From an uncultured delta proteobacterium (GTDB taxonomy: Bacteria > Desulfobacterota > Desulfomonilia > Desulfomonilales > Desulfomonilaceae): a DNA stretch of 64,000 nt. The notes beneath the pieces are model-generated. The model searched no databases, was not told the DNA's origin, and worked only from the letters and a program-made list of their open reading frames with translations. The translations under genes were made by a program, and so were the position numbers. The DNA lies in the NCBI GenBank assembly GCA_963789265.1, contig CAWBKB010000001.1, positions 1,088,001-1,152,000 of the forward strand, written 5' to 3'. The number at the start of each line of letters is the position of its first letter. Position 1 is the first letter of the stretch. This document shows, one piece after another, positions 16,676 to 50,830 of this stretch.

Positions 16676-17098
16676 TCTTTGGATGGCATTAGTCCGACAG
16701 GTGGAAAAATAAGATATATATCACATGCTTTCGATGTGTTATGGTAAGGGCCTTTTCTGCCCACAATTTCCGGACTTGTCAATTTCGGGCATGAGCTTCT
16801 TTGAAACTTTGTTGGCCATATAGGCCGAGGGTGGGCTGTTTAGTTCGTGCGTGCCGTCATCGAAGAAGCAGGTAAAAGCCAACACGGAAAGGAAAGAGAG
16901 CAAATCCAAGGTGGGCCCCATATAGTAGGTGCCCTCGTTATTGTGACCGCCTTCTGAGCCTTTACTTCAAGCCGTCATCTTTTTTCCAGGTTTCTTGAAC
17001 TGCGACCTAACCGTTTAACCCCCAGCCTGTGTTCCGCCCAGTCCCGGCTTGAACATTGCCGCATAGCAGTATATTCTTGGCCTGAAGGAGATGCCCCA

Positions 17099-18136
17099 AT
17101 GCCCATCACATTTGAAGCGCTCTACGATACGATGACCCGGATCCGAGCGGGAAAAAGAGAGGAAGTCCCCTTTGAGATCCGTACGGATCCCTTGACCGGC
17201 ACGACGGGACGCGTCTTCAACTTCCCCTATCAGCCCCCTAAAAGCCCCAATGCCGAAGACACTTTCAAGCGATCTGAAGGGATATTCTGTCCCTTCTGCT
17301 CGGAAAATATCGAAGACTCCACCCCTCGGTTCCCTGAGGAATTGATTCAGGAAGGAAAGATTCGCAAAGGAAGCGCGACCTTGGTTCCCAACATCCTTCC
17401 TCTGGATCGCTACGTGGGTGTAGCCGTTTTCTCTCCCCAACACTTCGTACGGATGGAAGAGCTGAAACCCGAAATGATGAGGGACGCATTTCTTGCCGTT
17501 CAGGAGTTCATCCGGAGGGTCTCCGGGGTTGACCCCAGGGTAGACTGCTTCTCCGTCAATTGGAACTACATGCCGCCGGCAGGTTCAAGCCTGGTCCACC
17601 CCCACCTTCAGGTCCTCTGCGGGGAGCGTCCTACGAACCACATGCGGCGACAGCTTGAAGGCGCAAACAGGTATTACCGTGAAAATGGCAGAGAGTTCTG
17701 GGACGACTTCATTCGCGAGGAGAAAGAAAGGGCGTCCCGCTACCTCGGAGAGATAGGCCCGACCTTCTGGACCGTAGGCTATGTTCCCATGAGTCACATA
17801 CCGGACGTCTGGTGCATCTTGCCCGAACAGAAATCCCTGGTTGGAGTGGGAGAGGAAGCGCTGAACTCCTTCTTGGTAGGCCTTTCGACCGTACTGACCT
17901 ATTACCGCACCCTGAACCTCTTCAGCTTTAACGTATCGATCTTTTCATTCAGGTTCGAAGAGCACTTTCGAGTCAACGGCCGAATCCTTCCCCGTTTCGC
18001 CCTGAGAGAAATAGGAAACAGCGATTACACCTTTCTTCAGGCCGTACATAAGGAGAATGCCAGCCTCTACGCGCCTGAGTCGGTCTGCCGGCAGATAAGA
18101 GAACAAGACTTCGGGACTCCCATCCCAACATCCTGA
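17099..18136 (+). CDS. Galactose-1-phosphate uridylyltransferase-like protein
   Basis: EIRTDPLTG, CPFC, NYMPPAGSSLVHPHLQ. Confidence 0.85.
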   Translation: MPITFEALYDTMTRIRAGKREEVPFEIRTDPLTGTTGRVFNFPYQPPKSPNAEDTFKRSEGIFCPFCSENIEDSTPRFPEELIQEGKIRKGSATLVPNILPLDRYVGVAVFSPQHFVRMEELKPEMMRDAFLAVQEFIRRVSGVDPRVDCFSVNWNYMPPAGSSLVHPHLQVLCGERPTNHMRRQLEGANRYYRENGREFWDDFIREEKERASRYLGEIGPTFWTVGYVPMSHIPDVWCILPEQKSLVGVGEEALNSFLVGLSTVLTYYRTLNLFSFNVSIFSFRFEEHFRVNGRILPRFALREIGNSDYTFLQAVHKENASLYAPESVCRQIREQDFGTPIPTS

Positions 18137-18441
18137 TCGATTGCCGTGAACCGCGCGTTCAAGCGGGATGCTCCCTACTTGCTGGTTTACTAATCCTCCA
18201 CATTGGGGCAGACATGGGCGTAGAAGATCCGTTTCACACGTGAAGAGCGAGCCGGCAGTAGCAAAAAGCTGTGCGTATCGGGTAGAGGGCCGGCCGAGGT
18301 CAACTTAGGGGTCCATTACCAGACGGACAGAGCTGAAAAGCGTGAATGGCCAGAGCAACAATCAGCCGCAGCCGGGGAAGTATTGAAGATCATTACTTCA
18401 TCAGACACATGCCCGTGATGATTGAACAGATTGAAGACCTG

Positions 18442-18540
18442 TTAGCCAAGAATACTCTCAAGGATACCGGATTCGGCCAAGATAACCATGGCTATCAACA
18501 TGATAGCCAACATGAAGGTCTCGGCAAGGATTCCCTTCAT
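18442..18540 (-). CDS. 32-aa hydrophobic microprotein, paralogue 1
   Basis: MKGILAETFMLAIMLIAMVILAESGILESILG*; RBS GAGGAGG; same-length paralogue at 44886-44984. Confidence 0.72.
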   Translation of the reverse strand: MKGILAETFMLAIMLIAMVILAESGILESILG

Positions 18541-18944
18541 GGCAAACCTCCTCGCGCCCAATTGATTCATTCTTTTTAAATAGTTGGACTGGAGATTTTG
18601 TAATCCGTTAAAAAATGAAGAGTGGTCACAACGTGAATGCTGCCGGCCTTACCAGGCACAATCAAAATGAAGAGTCAGTATCCATGGCTTTGATATATTT
18701 GCGGTACAGACGCACGGAGGAGAGTAACTACTCAAAGTTGAAGGCCGCAGTGAAGGTCTTAGTACTGTAGAACAGCGCCATCTGGCTCTTTACAAGGAAG
18801 CCGCCGTTTTCTTGCCGAAAGACCGATCAATGCCTTATGCTTGGAGATACCGGGGGATGAGCGGCATATTAGTCGCCAGGGATATGGGCAAGAAATCCGT
18901 GAGTTCCGGGCACACCGTGCTTAACCGCGCTCTTCCTTCTTCTT

Positions 18945-19072
18945 TGGTCCCAACTTTTTTTCTTCGGACTAACCGCCCAATCAGCATTTTTTCAAGAAGG
19001 CCGATGATCTTGCCGGTGTCAGAAGAAGAAGAAGAAGAAGAAGAAGAAGAAGGCCTGCTGCCGCAGATTGCC
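18945..19072 (-). repeat. Degenerate inter-cargo repeat, copy 1 (contains (GAA)10)
   Basis: CAGCATTTTTTCAAGAAGGCCGATGA..CCGGTGTCA..GAAGGCCTGCTGCCGCAGATTGCC. Confidence 0.75.
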
Positions 19073-19112
19073 TTTTTGAACAGGAATGAGCGGCCGATTC
19101 GGCCCCCGTTGG

Positions 19113-19697
19113 TCAGTGCATCCTGCGTGAGGGCCGTGATTTGATGGCAACCCTCCATTCTCCGGTTCTGACTTTTCTTTGAATTTCTCGAATGACTCGA
19201 TCGGCTATGTGCTGCGGTTCCATGTTTAGCGATTGCAAGGATGTGTTACATCTGTCACAGTGGAAAACGGTCTGATATTCAGAATATTCAGGCATATAAC
19301 CAGTAACTTCTAACTCACAAGTTGGGCAAAAAGGAATCAGACCCAATATTTCGTTCCCTTCCCAGTGCCAACGCCAGTTGATCCCAAGGAACTCATCTGA
19401 AGTATAAGCATGCCAGTTGAAAAACGAAAGCCATAGCGTTCTCAGGATCACAACAACAAAAAGCAGGAAGGATAAGGCTCCAATGAGGATTATCCAGTTT
19501 GGGATTAAGGAACTCTCTAAGGCATAGTGTATAAGAGACCAGAAGTAGCTCTCGACCGAAGGCCATACCCCGAGACTATTACCTATGAGCCAAACGGCTA
19601 GCCCGATGATGGCACTGGCAATCACTTTGCTCCAGACAGGATCAGCCCAAATCGTCTTCAGTTTTTCCGTCCAGGTCACCGATTCGCTCCCTCTCAT
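19113..19697 (-). CDS. Hypothetical membrane protein with C-terminal zinc-ribbon-like motif
   Basis: Two N-terminal hydrophobic segments, then CPTC and CDRC. Confidence 0.75.
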   Translation of the reverse strand: MRGSESVTWTEKLKTIWADPVWSKVIASAIIGLAVWLIGNSLGVWPSVESYFWSLIHYALESSLIPNWIILIGALSFLLFVVVILRTLWLSFFNWHAYTSDEFLGINWRWHWEGNEILGLIPFCPTCELEVTGYMPEYSEYQTVFHCDRCNTSLQSLNMEPQHIADRVIREIQRKVRTGEWRVAIKSRPSRRMH

Positions 19698-19744
19698 CTA
19701 CGCCAGTCGAGCGGACATCATACAGCTTAACCTCCCATTCGTTT

Positions 19745-19852
19745 TATCTTTCCGCGGCTTCTTCGTCCCGTGCACCCGGGCCCAGCATATGCTCAAAGTG
19801 GCCGGTGAACTCTCCGGTGTCAAGCTAAAGAAGTCTGCTGCTGCCGATTGCC
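19745..19852 (-). repeat. Degenerate inter-cargo repeat, copy 2
   Basis: CCCAGCATATGCTCAAAGTGGCCGGTGAA..CCGGTGTCAAG..GAAGTCTGCTGCTGCCGATTGCC. Confidence 0.75.
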
Positions 19853-19987
19853 GATCTGGTGGATGTGCTGATGGTAGTAGCTGGCAGTAACCAGTTGAGC
19901 AACCGGTCCTATATTCCCTCTGGCACATTAAGGGACTTCTCGGCGACAATTATAAGTAGTGTGCCCAGAACTCGCCCGCCCGACTGG

Positions 19988-20506
19988 TTATGGTGTTTCT
20001 ACAGTTTTTCCAGGTCTCGGTGGGGGTGGTGCAGGCATGTCAGGTGAACCCTCGGGCACCTCTGCGATCACGGCGGTTATCTCTGCCCCATCTTTGATAT
20101 TGAGATACTCGGCCAACGGGTCACGTGAGACCAGCTCCAAGATTCGCGCGTTTCTGTGTCCACCGCGGTATATCCAAGCCAATACAGACTTATTGTTTAT
20201 CTCGATCACCTTCGAACAAGGTGAAAGATGATTACCGTCCTCGTATCTATTCACGGCTCGTCCGCGCTCCTGCGCCATGCATCGATACTTACTCTCATTC
20301 GGAGGTGAATATAGTGAGTCGTCAGCCAAGACCATATTGAAAGTACCCGGAATGCACTCACGGATTTGCGGAAATTCCTCTTCGTGATCTGCGCACACTT
20401 GTTCCCAGTGCGTAGAGGCGTGACGGCTCCCATGCTGGCAATATGTTCCATTCACTATCACCTGTCGCCCCATTTGTACCTCCGACCTCTCATTTGCGAA
20501 CACCAC
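19988..20506 (-). CDS. Hypothetical protein, weakly CTP-dependent riboflavin kinase (DUF120)-like
   Basis: PGTFNM and LELVSRDPLAEYLNIKDGAEI resemble family motifs; start may be the later ATG (MGRQ). Confidence 0.5.
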   Translation of the reverse strand: MVFANERSEVQMGRQVIVNGTYCQHGSRHASTHWEQVCADHEEEFPQIRECIPGTFNMVLADDSLYSPPNESKYRCMAQERGRAVNRYEDGNHLSPCSKVIEINNKSVLAWIYRGGHRNARILELVSRDPLAEYLNIKDGAEITAVIAEVPEGSPDMPAPPPPRPGKTVETP

Positions 20507-20527
20507 CGTTGATTGTTCCCGCTGCCC

Positions 20528-20637
20528 TTACTTTTTCCCCGGCTTCTTTCGTCGGCGCACTCGGCCCACCATTTCTTCAACGTAGCCGCTAAACTATTCC
20601 GTGTCGGGTATAGGAAGGTCTGCTGCCACCGATTGCC
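20528..20637 (-). repeat. Degenerate inter-cargo repeat, copy 3
   Basis: CCCACCATTTCTTCAACGTAGCCGCTAAA..CCGTGTC..GAAGGTCTGCTGCCACCGATTGCC. Confidence 0.7.
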
Positions 20638-20835
20638 TCTTTGGAGTGACGTGATGGGGGCAGCCAGCGCTGACTACCCGAGAAATCTACCCCATGTAAT
20701 ACTCTTTGCCAGTGCCGGACTTCCGAACCAATAATTAACAGAGGTACACCCAGGAATTACCAGCGTATTAACCTTTTTGCTGTTTGAGTGTGACCTAGTG
20801 GTCTCGTATCATGGCAGTTTCTCATTATGGATGAG

Positions 20836-21588
20836 TCACACAGCGGGTGCGGATGATCCTTGCCCGGATGCCGCCTGCCCAACCTGTGGTAGTTCGTCCC
20901 AGGTTCGCCCTTCGAGCAACCGACCGGCCTTCTTCTTGTTGGTGCCGCCCCACTGCTTGAAGAAGAACGGCACATAGGCCCGGCGACATTGGTCCCTAAG
21001 ATCTGTGACCCACTCCGCTTTCATTGACCGCGCCTTTGGGCCGGACTCGCCGCCGACGATCACCCAATCAATTCCGTCGAGGTCGATGTTTGGCAGTGGA
21101 CCGAGAAGGGGCTCCAGCGAAAGAAACTTTAGGTGAGCTTTCGTCGCGCGGAGTTCATCGATTCGCGCGCGGTAACAGTCCATCTCAACGCTTACACCCA
21201 TCCAGATGTTCGGGGTCCACGTGAGCTTGGAATCGAGCTCGGCCAACCTGTTTGAACGCTTCGTGAGCACTTGGAAACGGTGCCAGTGCGCCCGGCGCAT
21301 GACTTCGAAGACCTTCTTCACGTAGGAGAGGGGCACGTCCTCGTGGAACAAGTCACTCATCGAGTTGACGAACACGGCCTGCGGTTTCTTCCACCTCAGC
21401 GGCAGTTCGAGCATGTGGAGTTGCAGAGTGACGTCGAAACCGTTGACGTAGTTGGCCTGGCCCATTGCCTGGAGCCTTTCAGTCATGCGTTCGGCATAGC
21501 AGTGCGTGCAGCCGGTGCTCACCTTGGAGCAACCAGTGACAGGATTCCAGGTGGATTCAGTCCACTCAATTGACGACTTCTTCGCCAT
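20836..21588 (-). CDS. DUF5131 / phage Gp37/Gp68 family three-Cys-motif (radical SAM-like) protein
   Basis: IEWT..TWNPVTGCSKVSTGCTHCYA, NSMSDLFH, LSLEPLL, GGESG, FFKQWG. Confidence 0.93.
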   Translation of the reverse strand: MAKKSSIEWTESTWNPVTGCSKVSTGCTHCYAERMTERLQAMGQANYVNGFDVTLQLHMLELPLRWKKPQAVFVNSMSDLFHEDVPLSYVKKVFEVMRRAHWHRFQVLTKRSNRLAELDSKLTWTPNIWMGVSVEMDCYRARIDELRATKAHLKFLSLEPLLGPLPNIDLDGIDWVIVGGESGPKARSMKAEWVTDLRDQCRRAYVPFFFKQWGGTNKKKAGRLLEGRTWDELPQVGQAASGQGSSAPAV

Positions 21589-21646
21589 GCGTATTGATTG
21601 CCCCTATCGTCCTTTATCGGTCTTGCATTCGCTTACGAACCATCAA

Positions 21647-22746
21647 CTACTTGTCAAGAAAGCGCAATATCGCATAGTCAGGGTACGTGTTGGACCGACG
21701 CTTCCTCCCGTCAGCTTTCAGTGTTTCCACAGCAATCCGGCCACAAGCCTCGTCCTGCTTAAGTGCGGCTGTCATATGCTTCTTCAAAAACGCTGTCTTG
21801 TCTTCGACGAACCTGCGCACCTCCAAGCAGGTGATAACTCCTTTTGCTCTGAATTGATCCCGAAGTTGGTCGATGAGCGTCGATGTGGTGTCGACATCGA
21901 ACAGGTACTCGCTGGTTAGGATTCGTGGCATCAGAGAATCTGAACTCGCCGTTTGGGTCGATTCGCCACATTGCCTCCTTCATCTTGAGATGCCCAAGTT
22001 CATGGTTGGTGGCGAAGAACAGATAGTATTGCGTGCGGTCTTGCCGATCGCGCATCTCGAAGTACCGCACGTACTCGGCCACACGTTCGAGATTTGACTG
22101 GTAAAGCTCCCTGAGCTGAACCACCCGGTTGCCGACACCCTTAGCGATGCAAATCGCTTCGACGGTTCCAAACGCCTCGACAATGTGCTGCACCACCTTG
22201 TCCTCTGGATGCTCGAGGAACCGGTTGATCGCGTCGACCATGAACGTAATGAAGACCTCGCAACGCTTGTATTTCAGCAGCCGTTCGATCAAGGAGAATG
22301 GGATACCTGAAAATCCGAAGGGATCGATGAACGCGAACGTTGGAGCGAGGGTGCCGCTACCCTCTTTGATGCAGTCCATCATCACCGCGAACTTCTCGTG
22401 GAACCGGCCGGTCTCCGGTATCACTTTGAAGTGAGCTGGGGTGTCCAAGTTTTCGAGCTCCTGCTTGAGATGCTCGATGCGGTCTTGCCGCTCATCGATG
22501 AACCAGAAGACAACTTCGTGCTGTATTGTCTTGCGATGGTTGAGTGCCACATTGAGAGCGATCAAGGGCGAACCGGCCTCACCCCCCGCGTAACGCCCAG
22601 GCCCACAGAATCCGTCGATGTAGACGATGCGGCTATGCCAAGTACTCGAATATTGGGAACCACGCCGCAAGGTACCGGCCCAGGATTTCATGCTTGGCTC
22701 TCGTGTGCGGGTCCATTACCCACAAGGTGTCTTTGGGCGTGACCAT
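21647..22746 (-). CDS. tcmP: Three-Cys-motif partner protein TcmP, two frameshifts (~22650, ~21905)
   Basis: HTRAKHEIL.RYL..W, YIDGFCGPG, FIDPFG, YYLFFAT, MKEAMW spread over three frames; adjacent to DUF5131. Confidence 0.85.
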
Positions 22747-23207
22747 ACCTTTCCCTATTCCCCCTTCTCCCGGCGCGAGAGCGATCCCCCCTTTGCTTTG
22801 GCTGTTGAGACTCTTCGCTGTAACTGGCTAACTATACGTGTGTCCAGTGCGCGGTCCAAGTACTTGAAAGCACTTCTTTCTCGATCTTGAGGTAATAGCC
22901 AGCCTCCAACGCACTGCGCAGATAGTCCCATAATTCCCGAACCACGGTGTCGATGTTTCTTCTCTTCTCAGATGAACTCATTCGCGGGAGAGGACCCGAC
23001 CATGCACACCGGTCACTCCGATGGCTCCTCAGACCCAAGTTGGTGGCGTCGCGGTTGCTGACAGGCAGCCACTGAGCACAACAGCCCCTATCATGTGGAA
23101 GGAATGGATTCTTCGGACCTTTTCTGAGGCTACGTCCCCGCATGCTCAAAGTCAATCATGAATTTGTCCTTGTCCCGGATAAACCATACCTCAGATGTTC
23201 CATTGGT

Positions 23208-23315
23208 CTTATTTGCCCCTGACTTTTTTCTTTAGAGCACCCGCCCCAGCATTTTCTCAAAGTGGCCGATGAATGCGTCGGTGTCAAGCGGAAGAAGAAG
23301 GTCTGCTGCCGCCGA
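23208..23315 (-). repeat. Degenerate inter-cargo repeat, copy 4
   Basis: CCCAGCATTTTCTCAAAGTGGCCGATGAA..TCGGTGTCAAG..GAAGGTCTGCTGCCGCCGA. Confidence 0.75.
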
Positions 23316-23383
23316 AACTGAGAGGAGTGAAGTGTCACCAGCGACCCATATGAGTCGAGGGCAAACTTGACCTCTTCTTCCGG

Positions 23384-24971
23384 CTAGCCCAAGGGGTGCC
23401 ATCCACTCCACCCGACGCCTGTAACCTGCCAAGTGTGGCGGCGTAATCCGTCGCGCCATTGGCTAAAGACTTCTAGCCGACCATCGGCATTGCGAGATAC
23501 TTCGAACGTATTCATGTCGCCTTCCAAATTCTCCCAGGAACCCCATCCGCTCTGGGTGTGCCATATGTGGCGTAGGCTGCCATCCCCCCATTTGGCAAAA
23601 ACCTCAAGCCGACCGTCAAGGTTTTGTGCCACGCGAATGAAATCTACCGACCCTCCGAGTGTATGCCAGTCGCTCCATCCCGTTACGGTCCTGCTATCCT
23701 GCCATATGTGCCTCACGGCTTTGTCGTTTCCACACCCAAAAACTTCTAACAGGCCGTCGCGGTTTAGCAGGACTTCAACAGATTCAATAGCGCCACCTAA
23801 GCTGGCCCACTCACTCCAACCGCCTGGACAATTGGGATCTTGCCATATGTGCCAGAGGGCGCCGGCCTCGTCTCTCGCAAACACCTCCAACCGACCGTCA
23901 GCATTCAGTTTGGCTTTGAAATCTCCCAGGCTTGGGACTGACAGGCTCTCTCCTTTGCCGGAATCTGTGTTCTCAGGCGACTTGCACATGCGTCGTTTCC
24001 TCGTTCCGAGCGAAAGAGTTTTCTTGCCATCGGATATTACATTTTCCGCTTTACCGAACTCGCGGCGTTGGTCAAAGTATGATCTGAGCTGCAATGTGAC
24101 TTCATCAGAATCGATGTCACAGGATATTATGGTGTAACCATTAATGTAATCTCGGGATTGATACAAGCACCCGCAGTGACTCATGACTGCTGAAGCAGCC
24201 ATATGCTCCACACGTTCCGACTCCGGGTCATGGTTATGCCCGAAAAGGAGCACGTCAAACTCGCTGAAAGCACGCCGCTTCGTACCTGCCATGTTCCATA
24301 GGTGATAGCCAGGGGAAGGAATGATGCATGACGCCTATTAGCAGGTCACAGTCTTTCACAGCCTGTAAGGCCGAATCAATCTGGCGCTCTCCTATGCTAA
24401 GGTTTCCGTAGTCAGCGTTCCCGGGTCTTCCGGTGGCTCGCCAGCAGGAGTTGAGGGAGCATAGACCCACTGCGGCACCATCAATGTCGATGGTGTAAGA
24501 GCGGTACAGTGGGTTTTTTGCACTCAGCCCCCTCGAAGGATGAGAGTCAATGAAGCGGTTGAATTGGTCCAATCTGTGCAGGTAATAGGGTTTGGTCGGG
24601 AAAGAATCGATAATGCGATTAATGTCATGGAAGTTTTTGCAACCTTCTCGCACCCCCGCGTCCAGGGTCTCGTCGACTTGGTCTCTGTCTATGTCATGAT
24701 TGCCGGGAGCTAAGAAAAATAGGCCCGGTTCCAGCCCCAGCACCTTCACCACGGGGGGCACGAGCAGATTATAGGCGACTTCAAAATCGTCGGCTACGTT
24801 GCCTGCTTGAACAAGGTCACCGGAAAAGACAACAAAACTGGGGTGGATGCCTTCCTCTGTTTCGAGCTTCGCCAAGTCAGCAATTAACGCGTCAATGACC
24901 GTCCGGACGTTTGTATCCCACGTCTTGCCATAGTGGAGGTCCGATAGATGAACAAAAGATATTTTCTCCAC
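23384..24971 (-). CDS. Metallophosphoesterase fused to four PLL-lectin-like beta-propeller repeats, frameshifted near 24285
   Basis: HLSDLH, SGD, PGNHD, MHH in one ORF; GHNH plus four N.DG.LEVF...HIW...GW..W repeats in the overlapping ORF. Confidence 0.8.
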
Positions 24972-25306
24972 GTGCTCAACCCTCCCTCCTCAGCGGTGGT
25001 CGGAATGCGTCGCCCGATCACAAGAGGCATTTAACGTTCTTGAATCGCGAAGATGAAGTCCAACCGCGGTCGTCGAGGGTTGTCCCAGGCCGCTTCCATC
25101 CGCAAGACTGGCGATACTCGTAGACCCCGGGAGAGCAAGCCCTTCCAAACGTCCCTACTGTCTCCCTTACCCGTCCAACTGCACATGGGACATTGACCTG
25201 AGACGGCACCTTCTTCGGAACCGGAATATGAGCGAAAGATTTAATACCCCGCAGCACGTCCACTCACCTTTGGGGCCCTTTGGGGGCACTGGATCCCGCC
25301 CTCAAC

Positions 25307-25342
25307 AAAAACAGGGGAGCCGAGACTTCTCAACTCCCCTGT
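25307..25342 (-). terminator. Rho-independent terminator downstream of the tRNA-Glu fragment
   Basis: Minus strand ACAGGGGAG...CTCCCCTGT followed by TTTT. Confidence 0.6.
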
Positions 25343-25359
25343 GATATTAGTGTCTTATC

Positions 25360-25398
25360 TGGCGTCCCCAAGGGGATTTGAACCCCTGTCGCCGGCTT
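25360..25398 (-). other. tRNA-Glu 3'-end fragment (att-like scar 1)
   Basis: Minus strand GCCGGCGACAGGGGTTCAAATCCCCTTGGGGACGCCA: T-arm, acceptor strand and CCA; no 5' half. Glu identity inferred from the acceptor end. Confidence 0.75.
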
Positions 25399-25405
25399 CT
25401 GATTT

Positions 25406-25630
25406 TCAAAGCAGCGCATTGAACTGGTCCACAGTAAGCCCGACATCGTGAATTATGGCTCTTAGCGTTCCTTTGGCCACCTCGTTGTGGTCCGGAACCA
25501 CGATCCTTCGGTATGGGTAGCTCGACTGTCTCAGGACAATGTGGCTCCCTCGTTGATGATCCTTCTCATAGCCGAGTTTCCTTAGCGCCCGCACAACCTC
25601 GCGGCCGGACAGTTGGGGCAGCCGTGTCAA
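25406..25630 (-). CDS. hicA: HicA family toxin
   Basis: LRKLGY..HQRGSHIVL, VPDH, GTLRAI. Confidence 0.92.
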   Translation of the reverse strand: MTRLPQLSGREVVRALRKLGYEKDHQRGSHIVLRQSSYPYRRIVVPDHNEVAKGTLRAIIHDVGLTVDQFNALL

Positions 25631-25839
25631 ATGGCTACCTCGACAAGTTCTTCGGCTATAGGAGGCGGAATAGGCTCGTCATGTGCGGCAAGACTTTCAA
25701 GATAAGCGGCTATGGCTTCCTTGGCGTTTTCGATGGCCTCCTGCCGAGTGCGCCCTTGAGAGATACACCCTGGCAGTGACGGCACTCGTACCACGAAGAC
25801 CCCATCTTCATCCTGTTCAATTAAGATTCGGTATTTCAT
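25627..25839 (-). CDS. hicB: HicB family antitoxin (short, no DNA-binding domain)
   Basis: VPSLPGCISQGRT..EA..N..EAI; overlaps the hicA start. Confidence 0.92.
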   Translation of the reverse strand: MKYRILIEQDEDGVFVVRVPSLPGCISQGRTRQEAIENAKEAIAAYLESLAAHDEPIPPPIAEELVEVAI

Positions 25840-25967
25840 TTTCTGCCTCGTCAATCCAGGCAAGTGCGGTAAACCGGTAAGTCGTGGAAGAAATGCGTTA
25901 GAAAAAAGAGGAATCAGGACTAAGAAGCCCAGATTTTCCGGTCTCTTCGCTCTTTAATGTGTTGTTG

Positions 25968-26000
25968 TGGCGTCCCCAAGGGGGCTTGAACCCCTGTCGC
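25968..26000 (-). other. tRNA-Glu 3'-end fragment (att-like scar 2)
   Basis: Minus strand GCGACAGGGGTTCAAGCCCCCTTGGGGACGCCA; direct repeat of scar 1 with two mismatches. Confidence 0.72.
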
Positions 26001-26319
26001 GAGAGCGAGAGAAATATCCCATAGTTTCCAAGGGTTGCGCTAATCGCCTTTCCTGATGAGAATTTCACAACTTCCCGATTCATGCCATGAAACTTTTTAG
26101 CACTATTTTTCCTTTTTTCAGAAGATTTTTTCCAAGAAAGGCTCCCACGGACTGGTACCTTGCCCTCCCTTCTCGAATCGTGACCGCGAACGTCATTTTT
26201 TCTCAAATCGACGGAGCTTACTCAGATATCTCTTAAGGCTGCCCGCATCATCTTAGAGTCGTCCGCAAGCCCATGGTCTCAGGGCTTCCAGCTCTCTCGC
26301 CACAGCCCCATCCGCTTGC

Positions 26320-27466
26320 CTAAATTCCTATTTCCCGTGCCACTACTACACGCATGATGTCGGGAGTTCCTCCTCCGATGAGGGGAAAATAGGAGTCGCG
26401 AAGATATCGTTCAACCGGGTATTCCGTCATGAGACCGTATCCGCCGAAGATGGACAGCGCCATTGAGCAGATCTTGTTGGCGGCCTCGCAGACGATGATC
26501 TTAGTTAGTGCAGCCTCTTTTGAGACTTTTTCGCCTCGATCTGCTTTGCGAGCGGCATAATACAGGTACAGCTCGGCACTCTCCAACATAGCCAGCATGT
26601 CCGCGAGTCGGAACCGCACTGCCTGAAACTTGCTGATAGGCATCCCAAACTGCTCTCGTTCTTTGGCATATTTGAGCGCCGCCTCGTATGCCGCCTTTGC
26701 CAATCCCAGGGAAGTTGCTCCAGTCATGATCCGGTCCGCTTCGAGGTGTGGTATCACCGCGAGGAGGCCGGTATTTTCTTTGCCGAGCAAATGGTCTTTA
26801 GGAACCACGAGGTCCTCAAAAACAAGTTCCGCTGTATCTGAACAATGGGTGGTAAACTTGCTCAGCCTCTTACCCACGCGAAACCCTTTCATGGCGGTAT
26901 CGACCAGGAAAACCGAGATACCCTTCATTCCTTTTTCCTGGTCCGTCTTGGCGACAACAGCGACGAAATCCGCTATCGTGCCGTTGGAAGTAAAAATTTT
27001 AGTACCATTGAGGACGTACGAGTCGCCATCACGTACGGCTCGGGTGCGAATTGCCGCAGCGTCGGAACCTGCCCCGGGCTCGGTTAAAGCAAATGCTCCG
27101 ATCTTTTCACCACGCAGCGCAGGAACCAGGTAGTTTTGCTTCAGATTGTCGGACCCAAAGTGATAAATGGACAGAAGAGGAACTGACGTCGCCATTGCAA
27201 CCGTTGCAGAAAATCCAGCCGATACTTTGGCTAACTCTTCCACCAGAATGCAGTGATAAGTGTTCGGCTGGTCCACGCCTGCTCCGCCGTACTCCTCAGG
27301 GAACTTCACTCCAAGAAAACCCAGTTCTCCCATTTCTCGGATGAGATGGCGCGGCGGTTCCCCTGTTTCTGTCCAGCTCTTCAGCAATCGGAGCAAGCCG
27401 TTCCTGTACGAACCGGGCGACGTGCCGGCGAAATTCTTCAGCTTCCCATGATAAACCGAGATCCAT
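26320..27466 (-). CDS. Acyl-CoA dehydrogenase (frameshift near 27370)
   Basis: FALTEPGAGSD, NGTKIFTSNG, REQFG, FGGYG; a plausible N-terminus MDLGLSWEAEEFRRHVARF lies in the adjacent frame. Confidence 0.9.
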
Positions 27467-46706: not shown

Positions 46707-47817
46707 TCACATGAACTTGTCCCTGAAAGCCCGCTGTTTCTCCAACGTCCATCGGACACAAAAAGCTGGTTTCCCTTTCATCACGATCTTAGTACACGCA
46801 TTGCACGAGTCGCACTGCAAAATTTCTTTGTCCCGCCCATCCATCACCTTTTGAGGCCATTCGGGATCAGTCCAGAGCACTCTGGCAAGTCCGATGAGAT
46901 CTGCACACCCATCGGCAACTATCTGTTCTGCCAACTCTCCCGTTACAATGAGGCCAGCAGTTACGATAGGAATTTCCACTTCCTTCTTTATCGCAGCCGC
47001 CAACTCAACCATGTAGCCCGGCCTTGTCGATCTTTCGATGATTTCTGGTAGGATAAAGGACTCATACGTGCCACCCATAACAGAAAGGTATGCCACTCCA
47101 AGATCGGAGAGCGTGCGAGCGAAAACAGAGGATTCTTCCAACTTCAAGCCATCGGGCAGCCATTCATCAGCCAGGAAACGGTATCCCACGGGGAAATTAC
47201 CGACGGCTTTCTTGACCTTGGTCACAACCTCCAATGCAAATCTTTGCCGCTTCTCAAAGGTGCCACCATACTCATCTTGTCTTTTGTTCGTTCTTGGGGA
47301 GAGAAACTGTGCGAGCAGGTACCCAGTACCTCCGTGCAATTCTACCAGGTCGAACCCCGCCTTCTTCACTCGGACAGCGGCATCGACGTACTTATCTTGG
47401 ATTTCTCTAATTTCTGCAACGGTCAAAGCTCTCGCCATGCGACCAAACGTATTTACGGGAGAAGGTGCAACTGGCTCCGGGATGCCGGCAAACCGCCCTG
47501 CGTGATTGATCTGCAAACAAGCCTGCGCTCCTTGCTCTTTGATCGTATCAGCCAAAAGTCTAAGCCCGTCCAGATTGTCATCGGTATCGGACCGAATGGT
47601 CCGACTGGAGCCGCTGCCCAAGTTGAAATCGATGGTGGAATTTTCCACAACCACTAGCGCAACACCACTTTGGGCCATGAGTCTATAATGATCGAGGAGC
47701 AGTTCGGTGACTGTCCCGCCGTAGCCAGCATATCCTAGGGTAAAGAGGCGGCATTATCAGTCGGTTCTTGAATTTCAAGCCGCCGATTTCCAAGGATTCG
47801 AAAAGATGGGAATACAT
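46707..47817 (-). CDS. NADH:flavin oxidoreductase (Old Yellow Enzyme family), frameshift near 47740
   Basis: MYSHLFESLEIGGLKFKNRLIMPP in the upstream frame; QINHAGR, GYLLAQFLSPRTNKRQDEYGG. Confidence 0.9.
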
Positions 47818-47886
47818 GAGCTGTTCCTTTCGAAAGGGAAGCGTCTACTCACGATTTCTGGACTGCATTTTCGGTCACAGGATCAT

Positions 47887-48222
47887 TCACTCTCTCGGCT
47901 TTGGTTGCCTGTTTCTTTTGTCGCGAGCTTCATCCTTCCCGCTGATTACTAGAAAGTCCAGTGGCAACCTCTTCAGGACATCCTCCATGGTAACCTCCGG
48001 CAATTTCTCATTATATTGCATTTTGCCACTATCATACGTCTGGATGCTGATGCCCTTGCTCCCTTTTATGATTATTACTTTGTAAAGCCGGGTCTTATAA
48101 CCTTGAGGTATCGTAATGAAATACTCTGTCTTTGATCTGGACCACCTTGGCTTTATACCATGCGCCTTGGCCTCTTCCGCTCGCTTTAATATTGCCTCGA
48201 ACAGGTCCTTGATTGCCACCAC
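47887..48222 (-). CDS. Hypothetical protein
   Basis: 111-aa ORF with plausible composition, no recognised motif. Confidence 0.5.
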   Translation of the reverse strand: MVAIKDLFEAILKRAEEAKAHGIKPRWSRSKTEYFITIPQGYKTRLYKVIIIKGSKGISIQTYDSGKMQYNEKLPEVTMEDVLKRLPLDFLVISGKDEARDKRNRQPKPRE

Positions 48223-48962
48223 CGCTTTTCACCCCCGAATTTTAGTGGCCGGGTACAATGATGAAAAAGACTCCATTGCTTATAGTCTGACACCAGGGCT
48301 TGTATTTTAAACAGTGTGCCGCAGCACAAGTGGAAAAGCAATGGGAATCATCTCATCGAGATCATGGAAAGAGCGTCTTTTTTGGCCGCGAGGCAGCGCG
48401 GCCCACAACACTGTTTCATCCAAGGAACTGTGCCGGAGGCAATTATTGCCTTTCGTGATTCGCACTCCTATTAGGATGCCATACGAACGCGATCTGACTT
48501 GGAGGAGACAGATACGCTGGCTTGCATAACGGGTGGAAACGCACAAGCGTTTCATAGCGGTGTTCCTGATCTTATTCGCGACAAGGTTCGGCAGTTGCTT
48601 CCGTCCGATCTGTGGGTGGTTACGCATAACTTCATCGTTGAGCAGGGATTGGGACGATGTGTCAGACAAGCTCTTTCGCTAATTGGGCTGGATGTGAGAT
48701 GTAAGGTGACCTTAAGTAGTGCGCAGTGCCCTCAATTATTGTGGCAAATTACTACACCTCACGAAATTTACCTCAGCAGTATAATTCGCTCTAAGATCAA
48801 CTAATTACAACCTTTATCTCTGTCCGACTGTTGCATTTTACCTCACTCTAGCCATCGCCCCGAAATACCATACCCTGTAAATCAATCGTAAAATAAGCCA
48901 ATTAATTAATTTCTTCATCTTGGCACACTTAATGAATGTAAGGAGGGTAAAGAGGACGGCAG

Positions 48963-50039
48963 ATGGAATCCAAAGCAGACAGCTCCAATCCCAGATATAG
49001 ACAGGAGGTCATCATGGAAAACACAAGAACCGGCGGGCTATTCAAACCAGCCGTAAAAGATCAAAAGTGTATCCATACGCTCACAGGACTTGTGCCAGAT
49101 CATAAGATATGCACTAACGCTTACAACTGCGAGAGCTGTGAGTATGACCAAATGTTGCAAGATACTCCCAAGGGTATCACCGGATTTAACCTGTCTGGAA
49201 AAGAGTGCATCTATATGAAGGCGAGACTTGTGCCCACCAAGTATTGCGACAACGCATTTGACTGCACAACCTGCCTGTTTGACAAGGCGATGAGTCGCAA
49301 GAAGGCTAAAGAGTCTCCCGGCGTATCTTGGAGTTCTGCTGTTTCTAATAGGGCAATAGACCTCCGTTGTCGCCATGCCCTCACTGGCGGTATGGCAGCG
49401 ACTAAGATGTGCGCGAATGACTATGACTGTGCAAACTGCGCGTACGATCAGATGCTCGATGACATGATACAGACCGACCACACGATGTTTGGGCCGCCGC
49501 AGTATCTCAAGGCCCACGGCTATTCTGTCCCCAGGGATTATTACCTCCACAAGGGGCATGGGTGGGCTAGAGTTGAATATGGTGGGCGAGTTCGTATTGG
49601 TCTAGACGATTTTGGAAACCATCTTGTCGGCAAAATTGACAAGTTCCGTCTTCCATCCATCGGCACGAGGTTCAAACCAGAAGAAGAGTCTTTCATCCTC
49701 GAAAGAGAAGGCCATGAGGCTGGTGTAAAGGCTCCGGTGATGGGAGTTGTCACCGCTGTTAATCAGAGAATCTTGGAACACCCTGCCTGCACCGGTACGG
49801 ACCCATACTGCTCTGGCTGGGTGATGCTCGTCGATCCTCTGGAATTGAAATCTGATTTGAAAGATCTTGCGTTCGGGCTTGGAAGCGTCAGGTTCATAGA
49901 AACAGAGGCAGAGAGACTTCTTTCGATGATTTCCGACGATCCCAAAGCAGCCGCTGCCACAGGTGGCGAGCCCATCGCTGACGTGTACGGGGCATTTAAA
50001 GATGTGGGCTGGGATAGGTTGGTAAAGAGCTTTATTTAG
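48963..50039 (+). CDS. GcvH-like protein with three N-terminal Cys-rich repeats
   Basis: HGWARVE..RVRIGLDDFG, AP..G.V.AVN, DPY.SGW; three C..C..CxxC.[YF]D repeats. Confidence 0.85.
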   Translation: MESKADSSNPRYRQEVIMENTRTGGLFKPAVKDQKCIHTLTGLVPDHKICTNAYNCESCEYDQMLQDTPKGITGFNLSGKECIYMKARLVPTKYCDNAFDCTTCLFDKAMSRKKAKESPGVSWSSAVSNRAIDLRCRHALTGGMAATKMCANDYDCANCAYDQMLDDMIQTDHTMFGPPQYLKAHGYSVPRDYYLHKGHGWARVEYGGRVRIGLDDFGNHLVGKIDKFRLPSIGTRFKPEEESFILEREGHEAGVKAPVMGVVTAVNQRILEHPACTGTDPYCSGWVMLVDPLELKSDLKDLAFGLGSVRFIETEAERLLSMISDDPKAAAATGGEPIADVYGAFKDVGWDRLVKSFI

Positions 50040-50533
50040 GTCAAGCTATGAAATCTCGGCCGACCCCGAGGATAATGGCCGCTCAGAGTATAGGAGTTCC
50101 GAAGGGCAAACAGTGGTGCCCTGAATTCTCACCGATGCGACGATGTTTGCGGACGGAAATGGGCGCCACATGGCGCTCATTTTCAGTGGGGTAGGACGAG
50201 AGGAAGGACTGCCTTACTCATTAGAAACTGCTGTGCAATGCGTTGCCGGTGCTGCAACATGCTCTGAACTGCCGGGAATCCTCATATTCACGATTGGTGA
50301 GGTCATATACTCGGGAATCTTCCGTTTCTACTCTGCAGCAAAAGTGACTTGTTTTCGGTCAAGCAAAAAGGGACCAGGGGCGGCCAACTAAAGGGAGACC
50401 ACCTGGTTGAAGAAAAAGAAATCATTGTTTCTTCTTTCTGGGCATACTCTGTTTGAACTGGTAGCTCTCCCCGTTCATAGAGAGGATCTGAGCATGATGG
50501 GTCAGGCGATCAAGGAGTGCTCCTGTTAATTGT

Positions 50534-50830
50534 TCACTGCGGAACATCAGCTCCATTCACCGCCGCTTTTAACACCGGAGAGTATTTCCAGGTAAGAACT
50601 CGGCGGGCATCTAGCACCATCTCCTCGCCGGTCTTTGGATTTCTACCCCTCCGAGCGTGCTTAGACTTGACAGACCATTTCCCGAAGCTAGAGATCATAA
50701 CCTCTTCCCCGACGACAAGATTCGCTTTCACTATTGCGAGCAGCTTCTCTAAGATCTCCTCCGCTTCCCCTTTCATGAAACCGCAATCATCCGCTATTTT
50801 CTTTGCTATATGTGCCTTGGTAAGTGTCAT
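50534..50830 (-). CDS. ihfA: Integration host factor alpha-like subunit
   Basis: MTLTKA, ISSFGKW, GRNPKTGE. Confidence 0.85.
   Translation of the reverse strand: MTLTKAHIAKKIADDCGFMKGEAEEILEKLLAIVKANLVVGEEVMISSFGKWSVKSKHARRGRNPKTGEEMVLDARRVLTWKYSPVLKAAVNGADVPQ

Follow-up and report, generated by a model that had tools for sequence, protein, structure and literature searches.

The window considered here is a stretch of 64,000 nucleotides from the genome of an uncultured delta proteobacterium of the family Desulfomonilaceae (GCA_963789265.1, contig CAWBKB010000001.1, positions 1,088,001 to 1,152,000). Between its positions 18901 and 23345, four related direct repeats alternate with unrelated genes, all on the minus strand. 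What are these repeats, and how did they come to lie between such genes? A preliminary description, made from the letters alone, took them for ~110-bp transposase 3' tails serving as the joints of a gene-capture array. The analysis reported here leads to another answer: the repeats are probably decayed miniature copies of a TIRtron, an element in which a transposase gene of the Y1 type is enclosed by terminal inverted repeats (TIRs). Mobile DNA of this kind would be nothing new, although it is arranged here with unusual order.

Four direct repeats in one orientation

Repeat finding recovers four direct repeats in the window (families D2-D5), all in one orientation and at the places initially reported. 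Aligned on the minus strand (MAFFT alignment A1), they show a mean column identity of 68%, and they are 57-69% identical in pairs. Their length is ~170-250 bp (172-252 bp in the window) and not ~110 bp. They are located as follows, E-values being those of the two profiles described below:

18901..19095, minus strand: copy 1, mini-TIRtron (A1 profile, E 2.9e-37; full-length profile, positions 904-1014, E 4e-6)
19722..19973, minus strand: copy 2, mini-TIRtron (A1 profile, E 3.9e-38; full-length profile, positions 264-412, E 3.4e-10)
20508..20758, minus strand: copy 3, mini-TIRtron (A1 profile, E 1e-38; full-length profile, positions 265-410, E 2.3e-11)
23174..23345, minus strand: copy 4, mini-TIRtron (A1 profile, E 8.3e-41; full-length profile, positions 893-1010, E 4.1e-8)

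The A1 profile, searched with nhmmer in the 6.06-Mb genome, returns the window copies at E 8e-41 to 3e-37, values that are not independent, the profile having been built from these very copies. It also returns five more copies elsewhere in the genome (E 1.9e-16 to 3.4e-4), and all nine sit on the minus strand of their contigs. A second, independent profile was derived from other genomes alone, using the full-length elements of G069 and G072 (see below). It matches the window copies with E = 2.3e-11, 3.4e-10, 4.1e-8 and 4e-6 in a 16-kb stretch, and with E = 7.4e-9, 1.3e-7, 1.6e-5 and 1.5e-3 in the whole 6.06-Mb genome. These significant alignments and profile matches confirm, at the level of sequence, that the four repeats are real and above chance.

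Each element starts beyond the stop codon of an upstream minus-strand gene, as had been proposed, at a tighter distance of 15-78 bp: 18 bp for copy 1, 15 bp for copy 2, 78 bp past the stop of a DUF5131 gene for copy 3, and 39 bp for copy 4. Copies 2 and 3 do lie just ahead of the next open reading frame (ORF), ending 2-25 bp before it (~25 bp in the case of copy 2). A weak fifth copy, suspected at ~23110-23175, was not recovered: nhmmer gives no match there even at E <= 1000 with filters off, and local scores against copies 1 and 2 are just above those of shuffled sequences. This stretch belongs to a duplicated segment, most of which is the following feature:

23004..23173, minus strand: non-coding segment behind copy 4 (blastn between array loci; no profile match)

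Together with the tail of copy 4, the segment (23004-23310) recurs at C1:2412145-2412445 with 82.8% identity over 308 bp (blastn). At that place, as well as in genomes G001 and G004, it precedes a gene of the choloylglycine-hydrolase family.

Head, tail and inverted ends of a transposase gene

The nature of the repeat emerges from an alignment of 54 copies, comprising the four of the window, the five found elsewhere in the genome and 45 from relatives. Conservation reaches far past ~110 bp. Translation of the 5' part in one frame gives ..GYPHHITQRGNRRQQTFF; that of the 3' part, two bases out of frame with the former, gives ..DEFIGHLEK.LGRVLRRKKPGPK. A 40-residue head peptide from one well-kept copy has 43 protein matches, of which 41 carry PF01797 (Y1_Tnp); the best reaches E = 7.5e-7 in 5.8 billion sequences, with 85-88% identity over the first 26 residues. 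The matched proteins, of ~220 residues, start with MGQVARVVVPGYPHHITQRGNRRQQTFFC and end with RTGRPLGSDEFIGHLEKTIGRRLRRKRPGPK..., their N- and C-termini corresponding to the head and the tail of the repeat. Since both halves are found in the same proteins, one protein family supplies both. The resemblance of the tail to the C-terminus of REP-associated tyrosine transposases (RAYTs; REP, repetitive extragenic palindrome), previously put forward, is therefore genuine: the tail is the C-terminus of a RAYT-type Y1 transposase.

The repeat profile aligns with the full-length genes of G069 and G072 in two pieces, model positions 2-57 at the gene start and 62-163 at the gene end, separated by 485 bp. 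Six full-length copies aligned with their flanks have nothing in common outside a block of ~0.75 kb, which is bounded in G069 and G072 by 27-bp inverted repeats with the core ..TTCCGGGTACACCATAC... The parent protein is 222 residues long and displays an HVH (HUH) motif and a tyrosine within ..RYVELNP..; parent proteins (P0007 and others) carry PF01797.

Measured against this parent, the window copies are preserved to different extents. Tail and right-end remnants are present in all four, the left end and leader in copies 2 and 3 only, copies 1 and 4 being cut short on their 5' side. In copy 1, which has no left end, little of the head survives; a (GAA)n run occupies the deletion junction, and the gene tail and right inverted repeat are kept. 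Copy 2 is composed of the left inverted repeat, the 5' leader, the gene head, a frameshifted gene tail and a degenerate right end; copy 3 has the same parts, its tail interrupted by an in-frame TAG. In copy 4 the head is truncated and has no left end, the right inverted repeat is retained, and the tail stays open until a TAA. The minus-strand reading GSRP..DT..FIGHFEKMLGRV..KKPG given in the preliminary description holds accordingly for copies 1 and 4 and fails in copy 3 (in-frame stop) and copy 2 (frameshifts). The (GAA)n microsatellite of copy 1 counts ~11 units (19022-19055), appears as a poly-Ser or poly-Glu run in spurious ORFs, and is a point at which the contigs of one sequence sample (X1, see below) seem to break.

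Head, tail and inverted ends around a 485-bp gap identify the repeat as a whole, internally deleted, non-autonomous element, not as a transposase 3' tail. The window copies keep ~26 first and ~30 last codons, with stops and frameshifts, and have no enzyme-coding capacity; lacking this transposase-coding feature, they rank as derivatives of the TIRtron family and not as members. Decayed mini-TIRtrons are thus the probable identity of all four.

Parents, relatives and other copies

With P0007 as query, 35 of the 61 genomes of the taxonomic family give a match. Full-length open frames occur in other genera, in G069 (97%), G072, G013, G059, G049 and G047, at 65-97% identity to P0007. No full-length parent was found in the seven genomes of the genus searched (completeness 76-98%), which yielded fragments only; the best in the genome of the window is an N-terminal piece of 73 codons on contig C7. 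Relatives at 61-68% identity occur in records labelled as many phyla (448 of 534 candidate stretches confirmed, counted in one-genome-per-species contigs). P0007 scores 72 bits against the NCBIfam RAYT equivalog NF047646, below its cut-off of 80. As for the element itself, five of the six further genomes of the genus contain it, as do 10 of 24 family genomes, whereas all 16 of a second family are without it; in relatives it always lies within short open frames. A search with P0001, a copy with head and tail in one frame, produced 162 candidates, none at E <= 10.

The genome of the window (G000) also holds younger, better-kept mini-elements bounded by TIRs, with near-perfect ends and other internal deletions, one of which keeps ~34 head codons and ~12 tail codons:

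G000 C1:417910-418145, C1:1832955-1833120, C7:316185-316410, C7:323010-323210, C4:34930-35160 and others: younger TIR mini-elements of 166-236 bp

The TIR core GGGGACAC occurs in many copies of this genome, with the variant GGGTACAC. A 23-nt end motif has 58 matches there (up to 5 mismatches), though no full-length gene was found. The genome's own Y1 genes were considered as parents and set aside, none of the seven PF01797 places ending in the repeat tail. Two nearly identical intact Y1 genes of 372-377 codons (C4:127739-128854 and C1:91572-92702), with a DnaA_C-like C-terminal part, are 30% identical to P0007 and do not have the TIR motif studied here beside them. At a locus of G006 (contig C20, oriented positions 14866-16000 of L026), a 1.1-kb insertion interrupts a mini-TIRtron tail; it has inverted ends ..GGTTGCAAAACC / GGTTTTGCAACC.. 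and a 268-residue ORF on the opposite strand. These ends of its own and the opposite-strand ORF mark it as the nested insertion of an unrelated element.

Same-direction arrays in relatives

The arrangement of the window, with unrelated cargo between repeats of one direction, is real and recurs. Copies were found in 14 of the 15 loci fetched from relatives, 45 in total, with a single direction per locus. Merging both profiles gives 57 elements at 19 loci of the genus and one further genus, and 56 of them run in the direction common to their locus. Among flanking ORFs of 100 residues or more, 37 of the 49 upstream and 36 of the 48 downstream have the direction of the element. The elements often fill the whole gap between genes, the distance from stop codon to left end starting at 6 bp and that from right end to start codon at 2 bp.

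A 13-kb array of G057 is composed of three full-length or near-full-length genes of a second TIRtron family, 92-97% identical, and four left ends of the family studied here. All seven elements of the two families point one way, which fits strand-specific insertion at a permissive locus better than homologous recombination. This array (G057:C5:392000-410000, L055) also includes unassigned cargo ORFs and has a Phd/PIN pair at its end.

Larger blocks also occur between elements. In the window's genome, a 6.6-kb catabolic block encoding a phosphotriesterase, an old yellow enzyme (OYE)-type oxidoreductase, an acyl-CoA ligase and a TetR regulator lies between TIR elements (C1:409235-416761; L138 5235-12761). 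The same block is found in G001 at an element-free site, within an insert of ~13.5 kb, at the site that corresponds to window positions ~50505-50577; the right flank in G001 is 97.8% identical to window 47213-50505, to be compared with the ~89-93% usual between the two genomes.

Proposed origin of the array

These observations can be assembled into the following scenario. One ancestral TIRtron copy would have lost ~485 bp of mid-gene, leaving a mini-element with both inverted repeats, the leader behind the left one, ~26 codons of the gene start and ~30 of its end, the latter in a different frame. In the ancestor of the genus, a full-length TIRtron transposase (TIRYT) may then have multiplied this mini-element in trans, as suggested by a deletion junction common to the copies and by their star-like relations. 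Insertions by Y1 enzymes, which act on a single DNA strand, would be polar, and repeated insertions into the intergenic gaps of a permissive island of accessory genes could have built the same-direction array. Later, the genus genomes searched would have lost the driver gene, leaving the copies to drift neutrally.

The history of the copies bears on this scenario. Their tree is star-like, and the nearest relative lies within the same array for only 3 of 54 copies; one old burst is therefore favoured over local tandem duplication or ongoing exchange. Orthologous elements are 72.7-87.0% identical, against 89.1-95.9% for the adjoining genes, and by these comparisons their decay is neutral. Most likely, then, strand-specific insertions struck an island of accessory genes in one old burst, and the repeats probably did not carry the cargo genes with them.

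Several observations weigh against this interpretation. Of 104 ends of homology blocks, 34 are no more than 100 bp away from an element, for 9.8 expected, and none of 2000 simulations reaches 34 (blocks of at least 400 bp between array loci; the null is uniform over the locus and ignores the faster divergence of intergenic DNA). The 6.6-kb catabolic block ends, in G000, 5 bp from an inverted repeat. The nine copies in 6.06 Mb are far more tightly grouped than random scatter would have them: four lie within 4.4 kb and two within 1.75 kb, and pairs within 5 kb number seven for ~0.06 expected by simple arithmetic. Agreement in direction within a locus (56/57) exceeds agreement with neighbouring ORFs (37/49 and 36/48). 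Furthermore, the direction stays constant across a weak turn in GC skew at ~2.0 Mb of C1, contrary to the replication-strand rule of IS608-type elements; one cluster (112-134 kb) is opposite to the rest, and the weak skew and the nine-contig draft limit this comparison. A target site or target duplication could not be defined, no common flanking duplication being present in six full-length copies or 40 TIR ends; Y1 elements, as known from IS200/IS605, are not expected to make one. The literature searched contains no biochemistry of TIRYTs, and the transposition mechanism is proposed by analogy only.

Alternative explanations

A first alternative is cassette capture by an HUH enzyme, a reading that we hold to be unlikely. 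TIRYT would integrate circular single-stranded DNA (ssDNA) intermediates, made of an element and a neighbouring gene, at the end of a resident element. That the mini-TIRtron once served as the recombination joint of such a platform, comparable to an integron and fossil by now in this genus, is just as doubtful. The co-direction of 56 of 57 elements within their loci, the filling of whole intergenic gaps between mostly co-directional single ORFs, and the clustering of homology breakpoints near elements (34/104 for 9.8 expected) would all follow. Between orthologous anchors, G002 and G006 differ in cargo separated by elements (L023 compared with L025); a DUF3786 gene has elements to its left and right in G004, a single flanking element in G006 and none beside it in G002; and the catabolic block lies between elements in G000 and at an element-free site in G001.

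The breakpoints, however, are also expected in fast-evolving intergenic DNA, which is mostly occupied by elements, and the null used was uniform over the locus. The elements evolve neutrally and have no conserved ssDNA or RNA fold; a fold had been among the checks proposed at the outset, and neither the repeat cores nor the whole copies 2 and 3 give a signal. Self-end targeting or terminal duplication was seen at 3 of 40 ends, for 2.6% expected by chance. An intact transposase ending in the repeat tail and followed by cargo was likewise sought: full-length genes do exist in sister genera, but the fresh full-length copies of G069 stop exactly at their inverted repeats and carry no passenger. 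Co-transfer of the choloylglycine-hydrolase genes that stand beside elements in two genera was considered and rejected, these genes having no DNA homology. Excised forms are not apparent either, no contig joining any two repeats in the Logan contigs of public runs, which are blind to rare forms. The refuting conditions named in the preliminary description had a mixed outcome: the alignments are significant and breakpoints are enriched close to the repeats, but copies are also spread elsewhere in the genome, as in a family of miniature inverted-repeat transposable elements (MITEs). Its central proposal, the repeat as a gene-capture joint, is not established: orthologous copies decay neutrally, no such recombinase is left in the genus genomes searched, and the contigs show no excision joints. 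A new gene-capture system is therefore not demonstrated at the window array. The broader form of the idea has about the same low probability: TIRtron ends as joints of a second, integron-independent cassette platform in Desulfomonilaceae-like Desulfobacterota, with live arrays in sister genera that have intact TIRYTs, such as G069 and G057, and a fossil one in the window. TIRYT would in that case release an element and a gene together as a single-stranded circle and insert it anew next to a resident element, always in one direction, so as to build up arrays of defence and accessory genes.

Somewhat less credible is a role as portable homology, in which once-identical mini-elements would have been substrates of the host's homologous recombination and would have shuffled genes without a dedicated enzyme. 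Circles might have been integrated and excised in the Campbell manner, or DNA might have been exchanged once taken up, routes that are improbable to the same degree. Any conservative recombination that integrates a circle leaves direct repeats around unique DNA, breakpoints are more frequent than expected close to elements, and some modules are common to different arrays. Against this, copies of the same array are no more alike than others and bear no sign of conversion or recent exchange, and the G057 array combines elements of two TIRtron families that are not homologous, all pointing one way. In addition, the identity of 57-69% between window copies is too low for recombination at present.

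A cis-regulatory leader or small RNA common to the downstream genes is very improbable. Such a role would suit copies 2 and 3, which end just ahead of the next ORF, and the promoter-like hexamers read by eye in the left end of the parent. The window copies, by contrast, have no promoter-like site on the minus strand, and their counts of promoters and terminators are at the level of shuffled sequences. Rfam (17000-27000, E <= 1) gives two matches below the gathering threshold, both outside the repeats; there is no fold signal, and orthologues diverge neutrally.

Finally, a cluster of attC sites lacking an integron integrase (CALIN) can be dismissed in spite of its cassette-like geometry (short one-direction ORFs, each followed by a repeat, with cargo of toxin-antitoxin and defence type), since the repeat is demonstrably transposase-gene DNA without a conserved R''-L''/L'-R' structure or an imperfect hairpin (ssDNA folds of ~140-nt cores on both strands, z-scores 0 to +1.7, the only low value, -2.3 for copy 1, being caused by the GAA run; whole-element folds of copies 2 and 3, +1.4 and +0.8) and the best genome match to the integron integrase TIGR02249 reaches 82 bits for a cut-off of 265.

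Cargo genes and the island

The old burst of insertions would have entered a set of genes of diverse and partly defence-related type:

19113..19697, minus strand: cargo ORF of 194 residues, membrane protein with a Cys-rich zinc-ribbon-like region (ORF list)
19988..20506, minus strand: cargo ORF of 172 residues, weak likeness to DUF120/CTP-dependent riboflavin kinase (PF01982, E 9e-4)
20836..21588, minus strand: cargo DUF5131 protein of 250 residues, partner of TcmP (Pfam PF07505, E 4.7e-101)
21647..22746, minus strand: cargo TcmP, three-Cys-motif partner protein, PDC-M30A-like (TIGR04474, E 3.9e-54; PDC-M30A, E 2.3e-40)
23384..24971, minus strand: cargo calcineurin-like phosphoesterase with beta-propeller lectin-like repeats (Pfam PF00149; PADLOC PDC-S60, E 3.6e-37)

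The zinc-ribbon ORF has a sub-threshold match to Pfam DUF5795 only (E 0.008) and none in NCBIfam or PADLOC. The 172-residue ORF scores 19.6 bits against PF01982, below the cut-off of 25; its listed GTG lies in the right end of copy 3, for which reason a downstream ATG is the more likely start. The DUF5131 protein matches the candidate defence components PDC-M41B (E 7.9e-123) and PDC-M30B (E 2e-117) of PADLOC. The N-terminus of the phosphoesterase-lectin protein is PDC-S60/DS8-like, the NCBIfam models DS8 and beta_propeller_lectin both scoring below cut-off. Pfam, NCBIfam and PADLOC scans revealed no toxin domain in the cargo of the window.

Two of these genes are broken in the window, TcmP being split over three frames and the phosphoesterase-lectin gene forming two overlapping ORFs. 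Short contigs of X1, probably the source sample, cover the stretch and are without one base at 21904, 22648 and 24285 (the last also in X2, from another study, which carries the phosphoesterase-lectin gene nearly unchanged), exactly where the two genes switch frame. The frameshifts are therefore probably assembly errors, and the cargo is probably intact and phosphoesterase-lectin a single gene; frameshifted cargo as a sign of decay was dropped, the X1 contigs being one base shorter at each break. One-base differences between window and X1 contigs also occur at 23075 and 27366. Parts of 18335-23105 are without contig cover in X2-X4, which proves nothing.

The array belongs to a larger island. 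Comparison with five genomes of the genus shows conservation only of the GalT-like gene on one side, up to ~18217, and of the acyl-CoA dehydrogenase side, beginning at 26311. No contig has the two together, and neither an empty nor an alternative site is visible. The ~8.1 kb of window 18218-26310 have no counterpart beside these conserved flanks in the five genomes; the GalT-like contig of X2 departs from the window at 18217. This stretch is a species-specific island with the array, defence-type genes and hicAB. The hicA/hicB pair (25406-25863) stands between 33-nt direct repeats (25360-25392 and 25968-26000, 94% identical) that read as a tRNA 3' end (T-arm and CCA); neither ARAGORN nor Rfam finds a whole tRNA there. 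One X1 contig joins 25396 to 26106, skipping 709 bp, and from this joint a hicAB-less form seems to exist in the X1 sample. In relatives, the array cargo includes choloylglycine-hydrolase-family, glyoxalase, TrmO, PIN, Fic, BrnT, DUF6602, methyltransferase and hydrolase genes; a Pfam scan of 105 of the relatives' 210 ORFs revealed no integrase. The absence from the window of an intact transposase, an integron integrase or attC, noted from the start, stands.

Comparison with known elements

TIRtrons have been described as RAYT-like genes flanked by long inverted repeats in place of REPs (Di Nocera, De Gregorio & Rocco 2013, PMC3733652). According to the available parts of that paper, many of their TIRs, not all, carry GGGGWSAS, and TIR families are "moderately abundant", often as dimers or clusters. 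The parent of the window repeats is of this kind, a RAYT-like PF01797 gene with the HVH motif and the ..RYVELNP.. tyrosine between long TIRs. The core of the repeat, GGGGACAC in many copies of this genome, fits the published GGGGWSAS, and the TIR copies are moderately abundant and often in pairs or clusters, as the same parts report for some genomes (PMC3733652). The window copies differ in being short of ~485 bp of the gene, and the 222-residue parent is without the C-terminal DnaA_C/helix-turn-helix (HTH) extension of the subclass to which most TIRYTs belong, according to the available parts of Quentin et al. 2018 (PMC6006769). Same-direction arrays with single interleaved cargo genes are not described in the available parts of either paper (PMC3733652, PMC6006769), nor, TIRYT-paper supplements aside, in the openly accessible literature. 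The arrangement was thus presented as undescribed with partial justification: this kind of element is known, as TIRtron/TIRYT (available parts of PMC3733652) and as MITEs derived from insertion sequences (IS), and no description of the same-direction array was found.

Like the MITEs that arise from IS by internal deletion (available parts of PMC3733652), the repeats are ~170-280 bp long, non-coding, numerous, gene-adjoining and provided with inverted ends, and they have a star-like copy tree, a shared deletion junction and an identified autonomous parent. Unlike them, they descend from a Y1/HUH parent and not from a DDE insertion sequence, have no target duplication that could be found, and are strongly clustered and co-oriented. 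In REPIN-RAYT systems, short non-autonomous repeats are tied to a single, vertically kept RAYT (Bertels et al. 2017, PMC5581495, available parts). Common to both is a Y1 RAYT-type enzyme gene flanked by the same repeat in inverted orientation. In contrast, neither end of the present element has GTAG, the ends are not self-complementary and NF047646 scores below cut-off; the window repeat holds gene remnants, and its driver is multi-copy in sister genera and not found in this genus.

With integron arrays and CALINs, the window shares small, unrelated one-direction ORFs of defence or toxin-antitoxin type, each followed by a related repeat, and a content that varies between species; it differs in having no attC fold, no IntI, a dead transposon as repeat and no visible site-specific exchange. 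IS200/IS605 elements have subterminal hairpins, no terminal inverted repeats, a TnpA of ~130-150 residues, and miniature derivatives known as palindrome-associated transposable elements (PATEs). The present element resembles them in its Y1 HUH family, in the polar single-strand chemistry expected of it and in the existence of non-autonomous derivatives, and departs from them in the 27-bp inverted ends and 222-residue protein of its parent. In orphan polymorphic-toxin modules, a conserved gene fragment is joined in frame to a variable toxin end, with an immunity gene behind it. The analogy with them was abandoned, stop codons parting the repeat from the cargo ORFs, in other frames, and the cargo containing no toxin domain.

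Implications

An odd "cassette array" is thereby probably explained as dead copies of a little-studied mobile element. TIRtrons gain a documented non-autonomous derivative with a defined deletion junction. For annotation, recognition of mini-TIRtron stretches is of use, as they otherwise give spurious small ORFs and false "transposase fragment" calls. A puzzle is left over: elements of the family, even of two families per locus, stack one way between accessory and defence genes, at places where species differ. If TIRYT moves neighbouring genes, this would constitute a new route of gene capture; if it does not, the arrays would simply mark islands that are permissive and reflect the polar way in which Y1 elements insert.

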